Source: a virus
Taxonomy: Duplodnaviria; Heunggongvirae; Uroviricota; Caudoviricetes
IMG/VR virus record: IMGVR_UViG_2687453529_000006
Strand: one strand, 5' to 3'
DNA: 40,565 nucleotides
Shown here: piece by piece, positions 542-34,196 of the stretch
Layout of the letters: each line of letters opens with the position of its first letter
Position numbering within the stretch: position 1 is the stretch's first letter
The notes under the pieces: generated by a model
Seen by the model: the letters and a program-made list of their open reading frames with translations, nothing else
Databases searched by the model: none
Told to the model about the DNA's origin: nothing
Program-made: the position numbers and the translations under genes

Positions 542-1579
542 TTAACGCTTATCCGCCACCAGTTTGAGCGCGTGTTCCAGCACATTAATGTCTGCACCCG
601 CTTTATGGGCATTTTCACTTAAATAACGCCGCCACTGCCGCGCGCCAGGAATACCCTGGAACAAGCCCAACATATGCCGGGTAATATGGCCAAGATACGT
701 CCCCTGGCTGAGTTCACGCTCAATGTACGGATACATGGCGCGCACTACCGCCACCGGATCGGCATCGGTATCCGAGGAACCAAAGATCTCTCGGTCTACC
801 GCCGCCAGAATACCCGGATTTTGATACGCTTCGCGCCCGACCATCACGCCATCCATATGTTGCAAATGCGCTTTAGCCTCTTCCAGCGACTTGATACCAC
901 CGTTAATCGACATTGTCAGATGCGGAAAGTCACGCTTCAGTTGATACACACGCGGATAATCGAGCGGCGGGATTTCACGGTTTTCTTTCGGGCTTAACCC
1001 CGAAAGCCAGGCTTTACGAGCATGGATGATGAACATCTCACACTCGCCTTTGCCGGAAACGGTGTTGATGAAATCGCAGAGAAATTCATAGCTGTCCTGG
1101 TCGTCGATGCCAATACGCGTTTTCACCGTCACCGGAATCGACACCACATCGCGCATCGCTTTCACGCAGTCGGCAACCAGCTGCGCATTACCCATCAGAC
1201 ACGCCCCAAACATGCCGTTCTGCACCCGGTCAGACGGGCAGCCGACATTCAGGTTGATCTCATCATATCCGCGCGCTTCTGCCAGCTTTGCACACTGCGC
1301 CAGCGCCGCCGGATCGCTACCGCCCAGTTGCAATGCTACCGGATGTTCTTCTTCACTGTACGCCAGATAATCACCTTTACCGTGAATAATCGCCCCTGTG
1401 GTCACCATTTCGGTATACAGCAACGTATTGCGGGAAAGCAGACGCAAGAAATAGCGGCAATGTCTGTCCGTCCAGTCGAGCATAGGAGCAATGCTAAACC
1501 GAGAATTCCAGTAAACACCATTTTTTTCAGGCATCACGCTGGTTTGATTAATTTTTTGTGTTTCATGATTATCGTGCAT
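542..1579 (-). CDS. dusA: tRNA-dihydrouridine synthase A
   Basis: 345-aa translation with the Dus TIM-barrel signature and near-identity to E. coli DusA over most of its length as remembered; the N-terminal ~30 aa appear divergent. Confidence 0.93.
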
Positions 1580-2826: not shown

Positions 2827-3075
2827 ATGCGTATTGAGATCTGCATAGCCAAAGAGAAAATGACTAAAATGCCAAACGGTGCTGTGGATGCGTTAAAGGA
2901 AGAATTAACTCGACGCATCAGTAAGCGTTATGACGATGTAGAGGTGATCGTAAAAGCCACCAGCAACGATGGCCTTTCTGTTACGCGCACCGCCGATAAA
3001 GATTCAGCTAAAACTTTTGTTCAGGAAACTCTGAAAGATACCTGGGAGTCTGCTGACGAGTGGTTTGTTCATTAA
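2827..3075 (+). CDS. dinI: DinI-like DNA damage-inducible protein
   Basis: 82 aa; MRIEICIAK...[15 protein letters not shown] resembles DinI family end to end; GAGGG RBS; LexA boxes upstream. Confidence 0.85.
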
Positions 3076-3137
3076 TTAATACGTAAAATCGATAACGGCT
3101 GGAAATCATTCAATACTCGCACTATCGGAAGTTCACC

Positions 3138-3180
3138 AGCCAGCCGCAGTATTCTGCCATGACAAGTTGCTGCGGCTTTT
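3138..3180 (+). terminator. Putative terminator after dinI-like gene
   Basis: Inverted repeat cagccgcag ... ctgcggct followed by TTTTTAT. Confidence 0.35.
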
Positions 3181-3185
3181 TATGT

Positions 3186-3473
3186 TTAACGGATAAACAG
3201 CCAGACCAGCAGACACGCCATCACCGGCACAGCAAAATCCATCAGGCTTGCTACATCCCACACGCGCGGATCAAAACCGCCCCACCACGGCATATTCATA
3301 CGCTTGCCATGTCCGAACATTTCAATCCAGCGATATTCTGCCTGGGTGTGTTCACGCGCAATGAAGAACGTACAACCGGCTATCGCCCCGTAAGCCCAGT
3401 TTCCGGTAAAAAGGCCAATCAGTACCTGTGCAGCCACAGCACAAAGTGCATGAAGGAAAGGTGTTATATCCAT
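3186..3473 (-). CDS. Hypothetical small inner-membrane protein
   Basis: 95-aa ORF with two hydrophobic segments; convergent with dinI; no family recognised. Confidence 0.5.
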   Translation of the reverse strand: MDITPFLHALCAVAAQVLIGLFTGNWAYGAIAGCTFFIAREHTQAEYRWIEMFGHGKRMNMPWWGGFDPRVWDVASLMDFAVPVMACLLVWLFIR

Positions 3474-3483
3474 TACTCCTCCT

Positions 3484-4188
3484 TTATCCGATATCGCTTC
3501 GGGAAGTTGATAACAACTTTAATTCTGACTCAAGTTCATCAACTCTTTCAGTCAGTTTCTGGATATGGTGAATCAGTGGAACAACCAGACGTTCGTACAT
3601 TACACCTTCGGCAACAAGGCCATTGCTGGAAATAGCTTCAGGAGCATCATTCTCGTTAGCTGGTCGCCAGTGAACAAACTGAGGGGCAATTTCTCCTACT
3701 TCCTCGGCAATCAATCCATAGAATCCCCAATCGCGCCTGTCATTTTCGCATTGCGACCTGTACCACACAGGGCGCATCTTGAAAATGAGATCGGCGTGCT
3801 CCGAATCTATCGTCTCTACTGAATGTTTATAGCGGATAGACGATGTGGACCGCAGTACAGACGAAATTGCGGGGTCAGGATTAAGATAAAGGTTTGCCGC
3901 CGCTGTAGTCGTGCCCAATCCCCACAAATAAAACGCTTCACGACCAGTCAGCGGGTAAAAATCTCCACCATAACGACCACTTTCCAGATCGTTCACTTCC
4001 ACTTTGTTTTTCAGCTTATTATCAACTTCAGTTTTTGTGTATCTGGTGCTGATATCCTGCTTTGCACTGGTCATATCAGTCTGAAGCGTTGATACTTTTC
4101 CGTTAATTGAGGAAATATCTTCCTTGGCTTTACTGACATCTCCCTTTAACGTGGTGATGTCTCCTGGAATTACTGTCGATGTAGCCAT
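3484..4188 (-). CDS. Tail fibre-like protein with C-terminal intramolecular chaperone (peptidase S74-like) domain
   Basis: 234 aa; coiled-coil-like N-terminus; C-terminal DWGFYGLIAEEVGEIAPQFV...ELESELKLL resembles the endosialidase-chaperone auto-processing domain. Confidence 0.65.
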   Translation of the reverse strand: MATSTVIPGDITTLKGDVSKAKEDISSINGKVSTLQTDMTSAKQDISTRYTKTEVDNKLKNKVEVNDLESGRYGGDFYPLTGREAFYLWGLGTTTAAANLYLNPDPAISSVLRSTSSIRYKHSVETIDSEHADLIFKMRPVWYRSQCENDRRDWGFYGLIAEEVGEIAPQFVHWRPANENDAPEAISSNGLVAEGVMYERLVVPLIHHIQKLTERVDELESELKLLSTSRSDIG

Positions 4189-4197
4189 TTGTCTCCC

Positions 4198-4479
4198 TCA
4201 CATCCAGCCACGAAGTTGATGCTCAACAACAATCGCGTATTTATCGAATATTGACGATTTTTTTGCATCATTAATGATGCGCACGTTTACAAAATATCCG
4301 TCTTCCTTAACACATACCGGTTCGCCATCTTCAGTCAGTTCTCCGCTTTCTTTGTACACGTTACCTATCACGTCAATAAGAATATCATCCTGCATCGACT
4401 CGTCATCATAATAGCCAATACTCTCCATAAAGGCCGAAAAGTCGGCCCTGTCTGCAAATTTGAGTGTTAAATCTTTCAT
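4198..4479 (-). CDS. Hypothetical protein between the two fibre genes
   Basis: 93-aa acidic ORF; 4-nt overlap with stf stop region; no family recognised (does not resemble lambda Tfa). Confidence 0.45.
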   Translation of the reverse strand: MKDLTLKFADRADFSAFMESIGYYDDESMQDDILIDVIGNVYKESGELTEDGEPVCVKEDGYFVNVRIINDAKKSSIFDKYAIVVEHQLRGWM

Positions 4480-6824
4480 TTAATACTCTCCCCCATTTGC
4501 GCATCAGTTAATTCTTTATGCCAGATACGCAGATTACGGATATGACCAAAAAGATGATACTCCCCATTAGTGCCCTGCCCTCCAATTCGCAATACTGCCC
4601 GTGGAACAATTGAAGTCCATGTTGTTTTTGCCGCAACAGATAATTCACCATTACATACGGCCTGAACATCTCCATCAGCGCCACAACGTAAGCCTGAAAT
4701 GATTTTCCTCTGGGTTGTTGCCACATATTTATTACACCCTCCCATAGAAATAAAAGGAGAACCGGCATCAGAGAAATTATTACCACGGAATCCATGCGTG
4801 AACAGACCATTTTCCTGATAATCTTTAACATTAAAGATTAATGGTGATTTGCTGGGAGGGATATCCCAGTTTTTATTAACTTCAACAAGAGCACTGAATG
4901 GTAATCGGTGAATATTGTTTCTTACAGGTATTGTCACCATGTCGCTGGAGCGAGTGCCAGGAGCCCCTTCAGTAATGATAAATGACGTCCTGTACGACCC
5001 AATCTCCGCCTGAGGCATCGCAATATCTAACGTAGAGCCATTGGGGATAATACTGATTCCAGGCATCGCCAGGATTTCAAATCTTGAGCTGATTATCATT
5101 TCCTCATCTGCAAAAAGAGTGGCGGTAAACAACCACCATTCACCGACTCTTTCTGCCGTCACCGTCACATTATTTCCATGAACAACATTTCCCGTAACAG
5201 GATCCAGAGCTGCATCTGAATGAAAAACAAACGCACCATTATCAGACATTTTTCCGAACCTTGCACGACACCGGGAATTATCACTTTTCGTCAGACACGA
5301 TATCGTCGTATAAGAACCTGCCGGGCAGGTGTAAGCATCATTCGTGTTTACAGCAATTGCCTGATATCCTTGTGCTGTCGGATTTTCATTAATAACAGTT
5401 ATCCTTCCATAGTTAAACCCATTATCACTGTCGAACGACTCAACAGACACACTACCCGTGTTATTCCATGCTTCTGGTGTATTTGAATTTCTGAAATAGT
5501 TTGTTCTCTGTCCTTCAATCAGCAAACCTTCTCGTTCAAATCGCGGTTCGTCAACTTCAGCAACGGTTAATACACCTGATTTATTAATGTATGTTGCACC
5601 TGATGCGCGTTTGAAGCTAACAACCTTATCGGATGGCATTTTAATAACATCATCACCTACAGTTATTTGCTTATAACCAGGCGAAAAGCCAGCAAGCATA
5701 TCCAGTGAATCGTTAAACGGTATCCACACATCAGGCAGTGGCTGTAAGACATATTTATACGGCTCTGCTGCCTGGCTTGCATACTCTCTCGCTGCGTCTT
5801 CACTTGCTTTTGCAGCCATCTGGCTTGCAGCGGATGCTTTTGCCGAGTTAGTCGCCGCAGTCTCGCTCGCCTTTGCGTTGGTTTCACTGGTTTTTGCAGC
5901 TTTTTGACTGTTGGCTGATGCAGTGGCAGAAGAAGCCGCCGCACTTGCAGAACCAGCTGCAGCACTCTCGCTTTGGGCCGCCGCATCCTGACTGTTTTTC
6001 GCCGCAGTTTCGCTGGCTTTGGCATTCGTTTCGCTGGTCTTCGCTGCCGTCTGGCTGGACTTTGCGTTAGTTTCACTCGTCTTCGCTGCTTTCTGACTGT
6101 TAGCCGCAGCAGTTGCTGATCCAGCTGCTGAAGTCGCAGAATCGGCTGCCGCGCTCTCGCTTTCGGCTGCTGCAACCTGGCTGTTTTTTGCCGCAGTTTC
6201 ACTGGCTTTAGCATTCGTTTCGCTGGTTATCGCTGCCGTCTGGCTGGACTTTGCGTTGGTTTCGCTCGTCTTTGCGGCTGTCTCGCTATTTTTCGCGTTG
6301 GTTTCTGATTTTTTGGCTGCTGTCGCGGAGTTTGCCGATGCAGTCTTTGAGGTCGCTGCCGCCTGTGCACTATTAGCTGCATTCGTTTCTGACGTTTTCG
6401 CCGCGTTCTTCGATGATGCCGCTGCAGTTTCGGATTTCTTTGCCGCCGCTGCGCTCTGAGAGGCGGCTTCGGCGTTGCGTGCCGCTTCTTCCACCATTGC
6501 CTCAAAACGGCGCAATGCCTCCGGCATGACATCATCTTCCGTCATGGCACCGAGAAAATCATTCAGCGTACCTGGTCTGGAGCCTTCATAGACGGTAATG
6601 GTCCCGGCATGTGAAGGCGGAAAACCTTCAACCAGCAGGGTGACGCTGTACTGGCCATACTCAACATCCATGCTGTAACGCCCGGCTTCATCAGGATTTT
6701 CAGAGGCCACCGTGTTCACCAGTACCGTGGTGCTGTTACGCTTTGCCTTCAGTTGAATAGTGCAGTTCTGTATTGGTTTTCCCGCACCATCTTTCAGCAC
6801 ACCTGAGATTTTTACTGCTGCCAT
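4476..6824 (-). CDS. stf: Side tail fibre protein (lambda Stf-like N-terminus, repeat-rich shaft, divergent C-terminal domain)
   Basis: N-terminus from Met3 (MAAVKISGVLKDGAGKPIQNCTIQLKAKRNSTTV...) matches lambda Stf; track ORF begins at an upstream GTG; GGAG RBS before the ATG at 6824. Confidence 0.85.
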   Translation of the reverse strand: MAAVKISGVLKDGAGKPIQNCTIQLKAKRNSTTVLVNTVASENPDEAGRYSMDVEYGQYSVTLLVEGFPPSHAGTITVYEGSRPGTLNDFLGAMTEDDVMPEALRRFEAMVEEAARNAEAASQSAAAAKKSETAAASSKNAAKTSETNAANSAQAAATSKTASANSATAAKKSETNAKNSETAAKTSETNAKSSQTAAITSETNAKASETAAKNSQVAAAESESAAADSATSAAGSATAAANSQKAAKTSETNAKSSQTAAKTSETNAKASETAAKNSQDAAAQSESAAAGSASAAASSATASANSQKAAKTSETNAKASETAATNSAKASAASQMAAKASEDAAREYASQAAEPYKYVLQPLPDVWIPFNDSLDMLAGFSPGYKQITVGDDVIKMPSDKVVSFKRASGATYINKSGVLTVAEVDEPRFEREGLLIEGQRTNYFRNSNTPEAWNNTGSVSVESFDSDNGFNYGRITVINENPTAQGYQAIAVNTNDAYTCPAGSYTTISCLTKSDNSRCRARFGKMSDNGAFVFHSDAALDPVTGNVVHGNNVTVTAERVGEWWLFTATLFADEEMIISSRFEILAMPGISIIPNGSTLDIAMPQAEIGSYRTSFIITEGAPGTRSSDMVTIPVRNNIHRLPFSALVEVNKNWDIPPSKSPLIFNVKDYQENGLFTHGFRGNNFSDAGSPFISMGGCNKYVATTQRKIISGLRCGADGDVQAVCNGELSVAAKTTWTSIVPRAVLRIGGQGTNGEYHLFGHIRNLRIWHKELTDAQMGESIK
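5830..6440. repeat. Imperfect tandem DNA repeats inside stf encoding (S/T)ETNAK(A/S)S-type repeats
   Basis: Repeated units visible at about 21-nt and about 190-nt periodicity (e.g. gccgcagtttcgctggctttggcattcgtttcgctgg... recurs). Confidence 0.7.
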
Positions 6825-6834
6825 ATCCACTCCA

Positions 6835-6861
6835 CAAAAAAGCCCGCCTGAACCGGCGGGC
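6835..6861 (-). terminator. Intrinsic terminator between lom and stf
   Basis: Minus-strand hairpin gcccgcc-ggttca-ggcgggc followed by TTTTTTG. Confidence 0.6.
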
Positions 6862-6888
6862 TGTCATAACACTGTGTTACCTGGCTAA

Positions 6889-7488
6889 TCAGAATTTATA
6901 ACCGACACCCACGATGAAACCGTCAGTGCGCCAGTCGCCACTGCCGGAGCCTTCATAAGCAATATCAATGGCCACGGATTCGGTCGGGTTAAACTGCACG
7001 CCAGCTCCCCACGCCAGAGATGTGTTGCTGTGGCGATCGTCATCACTTCCGGTCAGCACATCGTGCGTTTTCCCCTTGTTGTCAGTTACGCGGAGATAAT
7101 CCCCGGAGAAGGTCGACACACGGCTGTAAGCCACACCTGCCATCGCATAAGCACTGAACCATTCATTCACGCGTACAGATGGCCCCGCCATCATGCTGAA
7201 CCAGCGGTTACGCACTGAATCTTCATGCCAGCGGGTATCGCTGTAATGCGTTTTTTGCTCATCTTTGGCATTGGCATAACTGAATGACGTCACCAGCCCC
7301 AGCGTGTCCGTAAATTCATAACGGTATTTCACGTTAATGCCCTTCAGGTCATCACTGCCTGGCATATCAGTATGGGTCTGAAGATACCCGGCGCTTAGTG
7401 TGGACTGATGCTCTGCTGCGCTCGCTGGCGTACCAGCGGCAACCAGCCAGACTACTGCGGACAGAATAACAGCACATAATTTACGCAT
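6889..7488 (-). CDS. lom: Lom/Ail-family outer-membrane protein
   Basis: 199 aa with signal peptide and beta-barrel pattern ending ...GVGYKF; lambda-like position after J. Confidence 0.85.
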   Translation of the reverse strand: MRKLCAVILSAVVWLVAAGTPASAAEHQSTLSAGYLQTHTDMPGSDDLKGINVKYRYEFTDTLGLVTSFSYANAKDEQKTHYSDTRWHEDSVRNRWFSMMAGPSVRVNEWFSAYAMAGVAYSRVSTFSGDYLRVTDNKGKTHDVLTGSDDDRHSNTSLAWGAGVQFNPTESVAIDIAYEGSGSGDWRTDGFIVGVGYKF

Positions 7489-7555: not shown

Positions 7556-10500
7556 TCAGCTGATACTGATGCCTGCGGTGGCTTTCTTCATCACCACAAC
7601 CAGCAAATCGCTGATACTTGCTGTGGGATACCAGCCATTTACCAGCCATGCCGATACAGAAAATTCCAGTGTCATGACACCACTGCCTGCAGGCATATCA
7701 ATAACACCCGTATATATCAGCGTATTATCCAGAGCCGTTCGGTTATAAATTTCAGCACCGTTTTTTCGTACTATCAGACGGCATGAGGAGTAGATATCAG
7801 TATGATCTTGCTCATGTTTAGCGCCACTGAATGCCACCGCCGGGATAACAATTTGCCGGTCAAACGGCTGATCGTCATAAACCCTGACGGTAATGGTTCC
7901 TGATGGCCACCGCTCCGGTGCACGGGAGTCCCGGGGGAAAGCTTTGCCCACCGTTTTAACAATATCGCCTTCAATCTGGTTGGCTGACAGTTTTCCCAGA
8001 ATCCGGCAGTTCTGATTAATCGTGACATTGTTGAGCGTCCCGGAGTTCGCATTCACGTTACCGCTGATATCGGCATTTTTCGCCGTCAGCCGCCCGTCCG
8101 GTGTCAGGGAAAATGCCGGAGGATTACCGCCGCTGGTAATGGTGGGAGCCGTCAGGTATTTCAGGAACACTTCGTTCATGAATATCTGATCGCCCTGACC
8201 AACAAACATCGGCTTTGTGTTGCCATTCGCAGGATTAATCATCGCAATCCTGTCTGCCGCCAGCAGCACCTGACTCTGCATGCCGTCAGGGGTGTTTTCA
8301 ATACCGGCACCAATACCCGCGATATAAAGGCGTCCGTCCTGCATCTGCTGCAGCTTCACAGCCCACATGCTGTTCAGGTTATTATTTGTATCAACCTGAA
8401 CCTTCTGTATCTGCTGGATCGCTGCACTCTGGTCTTCCAGTTTCTTATTGACGGTCTGCGTGATTTCATTACTGACATCCGTGATGGACGTTCTGATTTC
8501 CGCCAGGTCAGGCGCAAGCTGACCGTTATCAATCTGCGTCCACAACTCCTGAGCCAGATGGGTTTTCCCTATCTCTCCTTTGAAAAAATCCAGATAGCCG
8601 GATGCATCATCACTCGGCTGGCCAACAGCCCCCACGAATGCCGATTTGCCAACGGTGTTCACACTGCGGATGTAAAAATAATAATCATGGCCCGGCCTGA
8701 TATTGATACTGGCAGCTATCCAGTACAGCGCCGTGCCAAGATAGCGCGCTGTGGTTTCAACCTGTCTGATATCCGCAATCCGCTTTTCCGAGAACCAGAA
8801 TTCAAACTGTACCGTCGGGTCATAAACGGCAAGATGCGGCGTGGCGGTTATCTGAAAATACCCCGGTGTCAGCTCAATCCGCGACGGTGCTGCCGGTGCG
8901 GCAATCCGGAACGATACCGACGCCGGATCGCCCTGCTGCCCCCAGGCATTTGCCGCCCGGACTGTCAGCCTGTAGTTTCCCAACGCCAGTTGCGTGAAGC
9001 GGTATGTGGTTTCCGTCGTCCGGGCCGTGCTGACCAGCCGCTCACTGCCGTCATCCGCTGCCACGGTCAGGCGAAGCATAAAGCTCACGCCCTTCACCAC
9101 CTTCGGCGTGTCCCAGCGCGCCAGTACCTGATATTCCCCGCTGTCTGCGGTGACTTCGGCAGTCAGGTGCTGCACCGCTGGCGGCGTGACACCATTCACC
9201 GTGCCACTCTGGTCGCCGTCAAAGTGCGCCCCGTTATCCACGATGGCCTCTTTTTCCGGCACATGCTGCACGGCGGTGATGGCATACGTGCCGTCGTCGT
9301 TCTCACGGATACTCACACAGCGGAACAGGCGCTGACGCAGCATCGGCAGCTTCAGCCCCCACACGCTGTATTCGGCAACGCCGTCAGGAACACGGCTCAC
9401 TTTTACCTTCACGCCGTCGGTGACGGACTGGACCTCCACGCTCACCGGATTACCCTGCCCGTCAACCAGGCTTATCAGCGTGGTGCCGGAGGATGGCAGC
9501 GTGATTTCACGGTCGAGCGTCAGCGTCCGGGTCTGGCTGTTCACCGCCAGCACGCGCCCGCCAATGCTGATCCCCGCATAGTCATCATCGCAGATTTCAA
9601 TAACATCACCCGGTACATGGCGCAGCCCTTCTGCACCCACGCTGAAGTCCACGGTCTGCGTTTCCAGCAGTTCCGTTTTAATCAGCCACAGCCCGGCGCG
9701 GTGCGCCTGCCCCCGGCTGGTACAGCCAAAGGCATCCATTTTCGTGACGTTACGACCGTAACGGAGAATGGCCTGCGTATCTTCAACAAGCTCTGTCGCC
9801 GTCTCCCAGCCGTTATTCGGGTCAATCCAGTTCACCTCAACGGCATTATGGCGGTCCTTCAGGGCGCTGAAGCTGTAGCGGAACGGCGCGCCATCATCCG
9901 GCATCACCACATTACTGCGGTTATAGGTCCACACCTTATCTGATGGTCGGTCCTGCACGAACGTCAGCGTCTGCCCGTTCCATACCGGCATACAGCGCAT
10001 CGCCGAGCAGAAATCACTGAGCACATCCCACGCCTTACGCTGCGTGGTCAGCCAGGCATTACAGGTGATGCGCGGCTCCGTGCCGCCAAAACCGTCCGGC
10101 ACTGACTGGTCGCAGTACTGGCCGATGACATACAGCGCCCATTTATCCACATCCGCCGCACCAAGACGTTTCCCCATGCCGTAGCGCGGGTGGGTCAGCA
10201 TATCCCACAGACACCAGGCCATGTTGTTGCTGTATGCCGGTTTAAACGTTCCGTCCCAGATACCGCTGTATTGCCGCGTCTGCGGGTTATAATTCGACGG
10301 CACCTGCAGAATACGCCCGCGCAGATGATAATTACGGCTCACCTGCTGGCTGCCGAACTGCTCCGAGTCCACCTGCACGCCGACCAGTGCCGTGTTCGGG
10401 TAGCACTGTTTCACATCGATAATTTCGGTGTATGACGACCAGAGCGTTTTGTTCTGCAGCTGGTCTGTGGTGCTGTCCGGTGTCATCCTGCGCATCCGGA

Positions 10501-11035
10501 TATTGAACGGGCGCGGCGGCAGGTTATCCACCACCACCGAGGCCAGATACTGCGACGTGGTTTTGCCCTTAATGGTGATGTCTTTTTCTGTCACCCAGCC
10601 ACCGTTACGCTGTATCTGAACCAGCAGTCGGACCTCCGACGGATTCCTGTCACCCTTTGAGGTGGTTTCCACCAGTGCCTGCACACCGAAGGTAAAGCGC
10701 AGACGGTCGATGTTTGCAGACGTGATGGTCCGGGTGATCGGCGTGTCGTATTTCACTTCCGTACCCAGTACCGTCTCAGAACCTGATGATTCAAATCCCT
10801 CTGGCGGTGTCTGTTCTTGCTCACCTGCCCGGAACACCACCGTGACACCGGAGATGTTGGTATTCCCCTCACTGTCCAGCACCGGTGTACTGTTCAGCAG
10901 CACGATTTTTAATCCATCCACCGGACCTTCAATCGGCCCTTCGCTGATGGCATCGATCACACTCAGCAACTGCGTGGATTTCAGGTTGTCCTTCGCTTCG
11001 CGCGGGGTATGCCCCTTACTGCTGCCTTTACCCAT
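7556..11035 (-). CDS. J: Tail tip host-specificity protein J
   Basis: 1159 aa; long stretches ([24 protein letters not shown]...) match lambda J as remembered. Confidence 0.95.
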
Positions 11036-32770: not shown

Positions 32771-33258
32771 TAAGCCCCCACGTAATTCCCTGACAGATAC
32801 CACTCTTCACCCGATGCAGCGCGCTTGCTGCTTTTCCGTAAGCACCGCTCACGATGCGCCAGAAAATTGTTTCGTTCTGGCTGGGAGTGGCTTTCACGGA
32901 ATGCCTCCATCCACACCGTTGCAGCTCGACGGAATAAGCCCCTGGACTCCAGTTCTTCAGCCTGGCGGGTCAGGCACAAAATCACCCGGGGGTCGTTAGT
33001 GCCGACATAGAAATTGCGCACAGGTCTGGTTTCACAAACTGGTTCCGGCTCCTGCAATATCTCAGCCTGGCGCGGGAAATGTCTGCGTGTATCCCCTTCA
33101 CAACGGTGAGCCACACGCCCACTCTGACGTAACTTGCTTGCTGACTGCAGAACGCGCTGCCGTGAGTAACCTGCAAAAGCATCCGCAATGTCTCCGGAAG
33201 TACACCCCGGATGGGCTTCAATGAATTTCTGAACGTCATTCAAAAGGCTCATTATCAC
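32770..33258 (-). CDS. Hypothetical protein with PerC-like C-terminal region
   Basis: 162 aa; ...ESRGLFRRAATVWMEAF... resembles the PerC/Pch motif as remembered. Confidence 0.45.
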   Translation of the reverse strand: MIMSLLNDVQKFIEAHPGCTSGDIADAFAGYSRQRVLQSASKLRQSGRVAHRCEGDTRRHFPRQAEILQEPEPVCETRPVRNFYVGTNDPRVILCLTRQAEELESRGLFRRAATVWMEAFRESHSQPERNNFLAHRERCLRKSSKRAASGEEWYLSGNYVGA

Positions 33259-34196
33259 CCCCTGAATCCTGCCGGGATCTGGCTGTAGTCCACATTGTCG
33301 TAACTGGCTTTGAAGTACGGGTCTTCGCGTTTTTCTGTGTACGTGCTGACGGACGGCGATAAGCGCAGGGAAAGTTCATCCCATTTTTCCCGCAGCTTCG
33401 ACGGGCTGAGCACGTTACGGCACCAGAACGGGTCGCGGCTGACACGGTTGTACATCTCGCAGATTTGTTTATGAGTACGACCATCCTGCACACACATCAG
33501 GCGAATTTCGTTTGCCCAGGCTGTCCAGTTCGGTTCTTTGGGACGAACCACCTCGCCGTCACATTCGGCGGCATGCTCGTACAGGGCGATGATTTTTTTC
33601 CAGAGCCACTGTGCACAGGTCAAATCATCCTGCGTCCCCCACTGGCGCTTTTTAGGGCTGAATACAACCGCATCAGGATGGCGAGTTAAAAAATCCTGTT
33701 CAGCCGTCTGCGTGTCCGGTTGCGAAGCGTCCGGACGAGAAGGTTTTTTATCTGACGGATCATGTTTTGATTTTACTGACGGATCCCCGCCAGATTCTGA
33801 CGGGTGAAAACCCGCTTTTTTGCCAGATTTCGACGCATCAAATTTTGACGGGTCAGATTTTGATGCGTCAGATTTTGACGGGTCAGAATCTGACAGTTGA
33901 GAAAGTGCCGCAGCCTGAAGCTTTGCAACGTTAAGCTGATAGACGTTCGACGCATTGCGGTTACCCTGGCGACGCGCCTTACGCGTTAACCAGCCTTCTG
34001 CTTCCAGCCGTGCGATAGCCGTTCTTACAGTACTCACCCCTGCGCCAATCTGGCGGGCAATGGTTTCAATTGATGGCCAGCACACACCTTCGTCATTACT
34101 GAAATCAGCCAGGCGGGCCATAATTGCCACACTGGATAATTTCATGCCTGACGCTGCGCAACCATCCCATACATAGCCGGTTAATTTAGTGCTCAT
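33255..34196 (-). CDS. Replication initiator (lambda O-like N-terminal HTH) with internal repeat linker
   Basis: 313 aa; N-terminus (…VAIMARLADFSNDEGVCWPSIETIARQIGAGVSTVRTAIARLEAEGWL) resembles phage O-type initiators; Ser/Asp/Lys repeat linker. Confidence 0.8.
   Translation of the reverse strand: MSTKLTGYVWDGCAASGMKLSSVAIMARLADFSNDEGVCWPSIETIARQIGAGVSTVRTAIARLEAEGWLTRKARRQGNRNASNVYQLNVAKLQAAALSQLSDSDPSKSDASKSDPSKFDASKSGKKAGFHPSESGGDPSVKSKHDPSDKKPSRPDASQPDTQTAEQDFLTRHPDAVVFSPKKRQWGTQDDLTCAQWLWKKIIALYEHAAECDGEVVRPKEPNWTAWANEIRLMCVQDGRTHKQICEMYNRVSRDPFWCRNVLSPSKLREKWDELSLRLSPSVSTYTEKREDPYFKASYDNVDYSQIPAGFRG
33745..33900. repeat. Iteron-like direct repeats inside the replication initiator gene (candidate origin)
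   Basis: About eight copies of a TYTGACGGRTC-like 11-mer (tctgacggatc, actgacggatc, tctgacgggtg, tttgacgggtc, tttgatgcgtc, ...). Confidence 0.6.

Follow-up and report, generated by a model that had tools for sequence, protein, structure and literature searches.

The side tail fibre module

The window considered here is the whole 40,565-nucleotide (nt) stretch of IMG/VR record IMGVR_UViG_2687453529_000006. It holds an Escherichia coli lambdoid prophage lying beside dusA, in which the end of the late operon, on the minus strand, reads J, lom, stf, p93, p234 and p95. This work deals with the tail fibre genes of this segment: stf (positions 4476-6830), encoding the side tail fibre, to which we assign the role of proximal fibre; p93 (4198-4479), encoding a 93-amino acid (aa) acidic protein; and p234 (3484-4188), encoding a 234-aa protein interpreted below as a second, distal or branch, fibre protein. 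All three open reading frames (ORFs) lie on the minus strand at the positions given in a preliminary description of the locus. The identity of stf is supported by its RefSeq annotation, by an end-to-end match to PHROG 1419 and by the presence of family PF08400. In the ORF list, stf begins with a GTG codon at 6830 (784 aa), and in RefSeq (WP_022646430) with an ATG two codons later, at 6824 (782 aa); apart from this start, the RefSeq and ORF gene sets coincide here.

The genes are tightly packed. Between stf and p93, stop and start codons overlap (ATGA); 9 nt separate p93 from p234, which has a ribosome-binding site (RBS), GGGAG, 5 nt upstream from its start; and 10 nt separate p234 from p95, whose RBS is AGGAGG. 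Judging from this arrangement, stf, p93, p234 and p95 form a compact string of apparently co-translated genes. Plus-strand ORFs found within stf (e.g., 5220-5486 and 6256-6459) were set aside as unsupported by-products of Ala/Ser-rich repeat codons. The segment from 3100 to 6900 recurs with 100% identity in numerous complete E. coli genomes, and at least 80% of it is present in 108 genomes. In one chicken isolate (NZ_CP067342.1) the module is interrupted, the match spanning 5.6 kb as compared to 3.8 kb, and its annotation lists a diguanylate cyclase as well as a tail fibre assembly protein; this suggests an insertion or recombination within the locus.

Anchor and shaft of Stf

The N-terminus of Stf is lambda-like, as had been proposed from the letters of the sequence. 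Residues 5-134 match PF08400 (Pfam, E = 9.9e-67), residues 5-97 (positions 6540-6818) match the solved collar, or attachment, domain of Ur-lambda Stf (9e7m_Ta/9mgh, E = 7.5e-49), and residues 5-345 are 59% identical to lambda orf-401. The collar domain fixes the fibre to the tail tip, and residues 102-393 of lambda Stf make up the proximal coiled coil (PMC12617516). By homology to these solved or described lambda parts, Stf would attach to the tail tip, as a trimer, through its collar and project the coiled coil from there.

The Stf shaft (residues 115-352, positions 5775-6488) can be printed in sevens following the pattern xAxxSxx, for a total of 34 heptads without interruption; together with the identity to orf-401, this identifies it as the proximal coiled coil, presumably trimeric. 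In the underlying DNA, Tandem Repeats Finder detects a repeat with a period of 189 nt (2.3 copies, 5852-6283, 81% matches, score 570) and sub-periods of 21 and 42 nt. A repeat search delimits two tandem copies at 5852-6040 and 6041-6229, each coding for 63 aa, or nine heptads, and 79-81% identical. The 189-nt repeat is best read as a duplication of nine heptads. A shaft encoded by tandem DNA repeats had indeed been predicted, with (S/T)ETNAK(A/S)S as the repeated element; the shaft repeats are real, but the octamer gives way to the heptad as the actual unit. Because the same type of sequence builds the proximal coiled coil of lambda Stf, the repeats constitute the normal shaft of this class of fibre.

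Shaft length was measured between the landmarks MVEE and PLPDVWIP in 64 distinct Stf sequences. In 58 of them it is 248 aa. The variants (241, 199, 185 and 143 aa, the last one found twice) all differ by multiples of seven, and the single outlier, an ORF of 207 aa, is probably truncated N-terminally. In phage IdasGreatGrand the shaft is shorter by exactly one 63-aa (189-nt) unit. Thus, copy number is not invariant; one length dominates and the changes keep the heptad phase. The suggestion that the repeats are a substrate for length variation therefore holds in that variation exists, in whole heptads, but such variation is rare. One IMG/VR locus with the same lectin allele as the window (L017) carries an in-frame 49-aa deletion in the shaft. 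In two genomes, NZ_CP099754.1 (locus 2877-5225) and NZ_CP015834.1, an stf gene with 99.6-99.7% DNA identity is annotated as three or four pieces, suggesting frameshifts in or near the repeat region that reflect either real decay or assembly error.

The C-terminal region of Stf

The C-terminal 400 or so residues of Stf bear no similarity to lambda orf-314 (best E = 2.4), in agreement with the view that this part is unlike lambda Stf. The conservation profile and the predicted secondary structure divide the region into three. Residues 364-455 (positions 5466-5741; PLPDVWIPFNDSL...DEPRFE..GLLIEGQRTN), where conservation is highest, form a proposed junction or docking segment. Residues 456-615 (4986-5465) correspond to a variable domain with a predicted concanavalin A (ConA)-like lectin jelly roll, the likely determinant of glycan specificity. 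Residues 616-784 (4479-4985) form a second domain, beta-rich in the AlphaFold2 secondary structure; its middle is variable and its C-terminal strand, of LamG type (HLFGHIRNLRIWHKELTDAQ), is conserved. The predicted local distance difference test score (pLDDT) in this part ranges from 66 to 92. Family PF13385 is recorded for some homologues of the region.

A lectin-like jelly roll had been put forward as a possibility for this region, and both family and model comparisons point the same way. NF048003 (NCBIfam, "phage head spike fiber domain") matches residues 437-628 with 64.9 bits, against a cut-off of 36, over profile positions 1-181 of 182. An AlphaFold2 monomer model built from 65 homologues is all-beta (mean pLDDT 79.9, predicted template modelling score 0.76) and has a beta-sandwich jelly-roll fold, confidence being very high for residues 436-615, lower for 616-784 and low for 376-435. 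The best fold matches of the modelled domain are the baseplate protein gp46 of Pseudomonas phage Pa193 (value 18.5) and domain 4 of the arabinanase AbnA (15.2), followed by the Botulinum toxin Hcn, pentraxins, CBM40 sialic-acid binding modules and LamG domains (11-14.6). Since the head spike fibre of the gene transfer agent (GTA), which shares the NF048003 domain, binds capsular polysaccharide (PMC10218006), glycan binding would be a natural expectation for the Stf C-domain as well. Receptor specificity may then lie in this domain and perhaps be shared with the second protein. The domain is not an uncharacterised novelty: besides matching NF048003, its homologue in phage IrisVonRoten, on a proximal fibre, has already been called galectin-like (PMC11990801).

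Comparison across alleles reveals a mosaic of conserved (residues 376-455, 616-655 and 736-784) and variable (456-615 and 656-735) parts. Identity of the window allele to the others reaches 62-82% in the 364-455 segment, but is 18-38% in the next 160 residues and other variable parts. IdasGreatGrand combines the same shaft with a different lectin allele, and protein P0001 the same lectin allele (95%) with a different shaft; such shaft and lectin swaps are classic modular exchange. Hypervariation of the type caused by diversity-generating retroelements was considered for the lectin domain and discarded, no template repeat or second copy of the variable region being present anywhere in the 40.5-kb window.

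The 93-aa protein

The product of p93 has no match in Pfam or NCBIfam and falls in PHROG 1361, a family that lacks an assigned function. The AlphaFold2 model (pLDDT 83) yielded no significant fold match in a structure search. Homologues were found by tblastn in 185 phage records and, among the matches listed, they lie directly after a tail fibre gene, mostly overlapping it. Two sets of IMG/VR loci were then compared, one of 80 loci chosen by the Stf C-domain alone (69 with enough downstream DNA) and one of 79 loci chosen by p234. In the first set, p93 directly adjoins the fibre gene, the two overlapping by 1 or 4 nt, in 69 loci out of 69; in the second, it is present in all 79. The protein remains 86-99% identical while the lectin allele falls to about 43% identity, indicating that it is tied to conserved parts of the cassette and not to the variable lectin surface. 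In a fibre type without a second protein, p93 is only 39-42% identical.

Being the constant companion of the C-domain, p93 may be the functional counterpart of an assembly factor although it is no homologue of the lambda assembly protein Tfa. None of the three ORFs downstream from stf matches the Tfa family (Caudo_TAP) in Pfam or NCBIfam, which bears out the earlier remark that a Tfa-like chaperone is missing. A Rosetta-stone profile search for fusions of p93 to other domains, covering 1.84 billion representatives, returned 69 small stand-alone proteins and a single larger one, a 1677-aa PKD-repeat protein (P0312). Five repeats of the latter match the p93 profile weakly (E = 2.3e-7), probably through a chance beta-hairpin resemblance (DGYFVNVRI.. 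as compared to ..Y.V.VRV.DDDG), and the fusion was dismissed.

The 234-aa second protein

The preliminary description had a 93-aa protein of no known kind followed by a 234-aa protein with an S74 domain, and this order is what the family searches return. PF13884 matches p234 residues 116-172 over profile positions 1-57 of 58, with 27.5 bits against a threshold of 22. The alignment to 8hqz_d, which we take to be LtfA of phage DT57C, extends the S74 intramolecular chaperone domain to residues 116-234 (positions 3487-3843): p234 aligns there to residues 952-1067 of this chain, an L-shaped tail fibre protein of 1076 aa that has its intramolecular chaperone in this region. Ser116 and Lys121 (TSSIRYK) align with VSDSRLK of IrisVonRoten Gp24 and with LSDRDLK of the JenP1 protein; from general knowledge of the S74 family, they presumably form the catalytic dyad, S-x4-K. 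Self-cleavage is thus predicted to occur before Ser116, Lys121 completing the dyad, and the mature protein would consist of residues 1-115. This portion comprises an N-terminal motif, a coiled-coil-like stretch similar to the P22 gp26 repeats and about 50 residues leading to the cleavage site.

The first 30 residues (positions 4099-4188) contain a conserved motif, M(A/V)T.T(V/I)IP.DIT.LK..., that is shared by second-fibre proteins and proposed to be a docking module. Second proteins of 231, 346, 351 and 574 aa all combine this motif with a variable middle and an S74 end, the motif being common to those of WaterSpirit, JenP1 and IrisVonRoten (231-574 aa). The 346-aa alternative of lambdoid prophages shares with p234 only residues 1-27 or 1-32, at 66-74% identity. 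When the 32-residue motif alone was used in tblastn, the matches to Enterobacteriaceae phages (best E = 2e-11) fell exclusively in groups carrying the cassette, among the matches listed; the search also gave six weak matches to Bacillus phages (E = 0.6-0.8). Homologues of p234 itself occur in Drexlerviridae and lambdoid phages.

The p234 form is 95-100% conserved across about 80 IMG/VR loci, and the ORF is intact (233-241 aa) in 74 of the 79 loci of the second set. Among loci with the same lectin allele (L010, L016 and L017), shortened second proteins of 229 and 157 aa occur. The PHROG 3299 profile (1385 positions) covers the Stf shaft with positions 214-379 and the whole of p234 with its last 238, a hint that single-chain fibres containing the p234 sequence may exist; none was present among the 79 loci.

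Spread and reassortment of the cassette

Relatives of the Stf C-terminal region number more than 2,180 in the protein collection, and 220 phage records contain a match. Among its carriers are lambdoid phages (including phage 21), T1-like Drexlerviridae, Dhillonvirus, Queuovirinae (JenP1/JenP2), T5-like Markadamsvirinae and rV5-like myoviruses. The sizes of the fibre, of the small ORF and of the next protein are, respectively, 796, 92 and 574 aa in IrisVonRoten (T5-like); 654, 92 and 231 aa in WaterSpirit (T1-like); 703, 92 and 351 aa in JenP1 (Nonagvirus); 1479, 110 and 196 aa in CarlMeissner (rV5-like); and 673, 92 and 97 aa in the lambdoid 1H12. The 196-aa protein that follows the p93 homologue in CarlMeissner has neither an S74 match nor the N-terminal motif.

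The anchors of the proximal fibres differ: PF08400 in lambdoids and JenP1, Tail_spike_N in rV5-like phages and none of these in T1-like and T5-like phages. Each of three clusters of C-domain alleles in the IMG/VR loci is found paired with p234 in some cases and with the 346-aa protein in others, which indicates that the second protein reassorts independently of the lectin allele. On these comparisons, the stf C-domain, p93 and the second protein make up a mobile cassette of lambdoid, T1-like, T5-like, Queuovirinae and, in part, rV5-like phages.

Neighbouring genes and features

The string closes with p95 (3186-3473, minus strand), coding for a 95-aa hydrophobic protein with three hydrophobic stretches; its family, PHROG 1443, carries no assigned function. 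Where lambdoid loci extend far enough downstream, this gene occupies the same place in nearly all of them, and its identity, 80-98% (mostly 89-98%), holds regardless of the fibre allele or second protein. It is not present in the annotated examples of T1-like and T5-like versions of the cassette. Probably, p95 is not part of the fibre; we regard it as a candidate moron or membrane protein.

Upstream from stf lie lom (6889-7488) and J (7556-11035), both on the minus strand. The interval between lom and stf contains a strong terminator-like hairpin (6841-6862, minus strand) with an 8-bp stem, seven G-C pairs and a following T run. Its sequence is consistent with lom being expressed alone in the lysogen, with late readthrough by antitermination. 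At the edge of the prophage, dusA (542-1579, minus strand) is apparently intact (345 aa). The prophage starts with a tyrosine integrase gene on the plus strand (1668-2765), and a DinI-like gene (2827-3075, plus strand) belongs to the prophage/dusA junction; RefSeq also places a short fragment of a capsid-protein pseudogene near 3072-3152. Elsewhere in the window, a 313-aa ORF (33255-34196, minus strand) contains an array of a 15-nt unit (33824-33898) in which four overlapping 30-nt copies are spaced 15 nt apart; this looks like the iterons of a replication origin within an O-like gene.

Discussion

We lean towards reading the region as the genes of a side (lateral) tail fibre composed of two proteins and derived from a horizontally mobile cassette. 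Homology to lambda shows Stf, presumably as a trimer, attaching to the tail tip by the lambda-type collar domain and projecting a long alpha-helical coiled coil of 34 heptads. Structure prediction and family membership show what follows the coiled coil: the conserved junction segment and then two beta sandwiches, of which the one nearer the shaft is a ConA/LamG-type lectin jelly roll homologous to the Rhodobacter GTA head-spike-fibre domain. The variable parts of these lectin domains may bind a surface glycan (O-antigen, capsule or lipopolysaccharide) and set primary host recognition. The product of p234 would be a second, short trimeric fibre whose own C-terminal S74 chaperone helps it fold and then cuts itself off before Ser116. 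The resulting piece of about 115 aa would dock by its N-terminal 30 residues on the Stf junction, yielding a serial or branched fibre. Translationally coupled to stf, p93 would act at this junction; it may be a structural adaptor or, in place of Tfa, a dedicated factor for assembly. Finally, the heptad array and the 189-nt duplication would permit an occasional in-frame change in shaft length.

The location of the docking site follows from the distribution of the cassette: since the anchors differ and only the C-domain and p93 travel with the motif, the site should lie inside the cassette, an argument used by Golomidova et al. for LtfB of DT57C (PMC4728585). The best candidate is the segment 364-455 of Stf, highly conserved and poorly predicted as a monomer, with or without the participation of p93. 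As to p93, it is possible, if somewhat doubtful, that it represents an unrecognised fibre-junction family, present in at least five phage groups, whose members act as a monomeric adaptor for the trimeric distal fibre or as an assembly factor unrelated to Tfa. If so, the p93 junction family would make distal fibres freely exchangeable.

Several points weigh against the two-protein fibre. In 1H12-type lambdoid modules the fibre and p93 occur without a second protein, showing that the latter is dispensable in at least one divergent version. Mature p234 is very short, with about 50 residues from the end of the coiled coil to the cleavage site, and may add little to receptor binding. The p234 homologue in the BASEL phages KarlJaspers and PeterMerian is labelled "putative lateral tail fiber chaperone" in GenBank. 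In addition, the binding of p234 to Stf and a place for p93 in the virion are proposals, and glycan binding by the lectin domains is deduced solely from the fold and the name of the family.

The GenBank label just mentioned, along with other records reading "chaperone of endosialidase", fits the idea that p234 is a trans-acting assembly chaperone for Stf, which would help the C-terminus fold or trimerise, perhaps together with p93, and then be discarded without entering the virion. The shortness of the mature portion, and the lack of a Tfa homologue in the Pfam and NCBIfam searches, can be read in the same sense. We nevertheless consider this explanation unlikely. According to the literature, S74 domains act in cis, on their own polypeptide, and then self-cleave (PMC4728585, PMC12090712); the motif found at the start of p234 heads longer proteins (346, 351 and 574 aa) with large receptor-binding parts, the 574-aa one being the T-shaped Gp24; and 1H12-type fibres exist without any S74 protein. 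Furthermore, ConA-like domains are globular monomeric folds and should need no trimerisation chaperone.

It is quite improbable that p234 forms an independent short fibre on the tail tip, with stf and p234 as mere neighbours. Its own RBS and start codon would allow for this, and some phages do have several independent sets of fibres (PMC8594841); however, the p234 motif occurs with differing proximal anchors (lambdoid, T1-like, T5-like and Queuovirinae), and what accompanies it from phage to phage is the fibre C-domain together with p93; this reasoning is the one applied to LtfB of DT57C (PMC4728585). That the module is a decaying remnant and p234 a functionless, truncated leftover of a longer fibre gene, as the PHROG 3299 alignment, the shortened variants and the two genomes with stf in pieces might suggest, is hardly credible given the conservation and integrity of p234 in the IMG/VR loci, its presence in the plaque-isolated phages IdasGreatGrand and PhiR49_1, the 231-aa counterparts in lytic T1-like phages (57-62% identity) and the intact RBS and catalytic dyad.

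Host recognition begins with the side or lateral fibres, and these are the parts swapped when lambda-based delivery particles and therapeutic phages are re-targeted. The conserved joints, namely Stf 364-455, the C-terminal strand of Stf and, in the second protein, the first 30 residues, offer practical cut points for chimeras. The analysis also singles out p93 as a component of the cassette whose function nobody has addressed.

Comparison with known systems

The closest parallel is the cassette of IrisVonRoten (Bas32), which, according to Humolli et al. 2025 (PMC11990801), comprises the proximal fibre Gp22 with a galectin-like C-terminal domain, the 92-aa Gp23 and the T-shaped distal Gp24 with an intramolecular chaperone. 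In their AlphaFold-Multimer model Gp24 is attached to Gp22, and the protruding "galectin-like" domain is proposed as an extra receptor-binding domain (Fig 12B legend); the published evidence for fibre attachment is thus itself a structure prediction, and the docking proposed here follows this Gp22/Gp24 arrangement, the two cassettes being homologous. Gp23 receives no discussion in the passages searched. IrisVonRoten and the window share the gene order, the overlapping stop and start between the fibre gene and the small ORF, the C-domain (45% identity over 408 aa), the p93 homologue (36-37%) and a second protein with the same N-terminal motif and S74 end. They differ at the N-terminal anchor, as the IrisVonRoten fibre has no PF08400, and in the size of the second protein (574 aa in IrisVonRoten, 234 aa in the window). 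The alignment of p234 to Gp24 is confined to the N-terminal motif and the S74 region, with about 115 residues preceding the S74 domain in p234. Because p234 is without the Gp12-like receptor-binding domain 1 and most of the T5-like receptor-binding domain 2, it cannot be T-shaped.

With Ur-lambda Stf (9E7M/9MGH, PMC12617516), the window Stf has in common the collar and proximal coiled coil (59% over residues 5-345, higher in the collar) and the position after J and lom. In comparison with lambda, however, the distal half is replaced: orf-314, the gp37-like, OmpC-binding part, is not matched by the window Stf, and lambda has no second fibre gene.

The T5-like phages DT57C and DT571/2, with their branched L-shaped tail fibres (PMC4728585, PMC10713586), offer a precedent for docking, in that their second protein, LtfB, is thought to dock on LtfA by a short conserved N-terminus, as proposed here. 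LtfB of DT57C is also an S74-ended second protein, like p234, and has modular O-antigen specificity. Unlike the window, where Stf has no S74 match, DT57C has S74 in both proteins, and no ConA-like domain or small intervening gene has been described for it. The N-terminus of LtfB in DT57C-type fibres is related to phiEco32 gp15, and the window module falls outside this type: a tblastn search with p234 residues 1-32 found no DT57C-type phage at E <= 1 among the best 60 of 69 records.

Other systems share single parts. The head spike fibre of the Rhodobacter capsulatus GTA (NF048003, PMC10218006) has one domain in common with the window, corresponding to Stf 437-628, but it sits on a capsid spike and not in a tail fibre, and polysaccharide binding is known for the GTA protein. 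Among solved structures, the C-domain has its nearest relative in Pa193 gp46, which uses a single attachment loop to hold a trimeric fibre by the N-terminal loops of the latter (PMC11456595), a likeness that we take as an analogy only. The S74 domains of K1F endosialidase and T5 pb1 resemble that of p234 in C-terminal position, PF13884 membership and the Ser-x4-Lys pair; in p234, however, the chaperoned part is unusually short (about 115 aa) and cleavage is a prediction. Three further reports were looked at and set aside: those on chimeric lambda STF engineering (PMC11338833) and on the single-chain fibre gp28 of Cronobacter Drexlerviridae (PMC12090712) have no bearing on the module, and the main text of the rV5 virion proteomics study (PMC3606486) does not resolve the small ORF.

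Overall, the module is an ordinary, widely shared phage cassette, of a type already outlined in print for a T5-like phage. To the literature searched, the window and its relatives add three points: the 93-aa gene is strictly linked to this fibre tip, S74-bearing second proteins reassort freely behind an N-terminal plug that they have in common, and the second protein exists in a minimal, 234-aa version.

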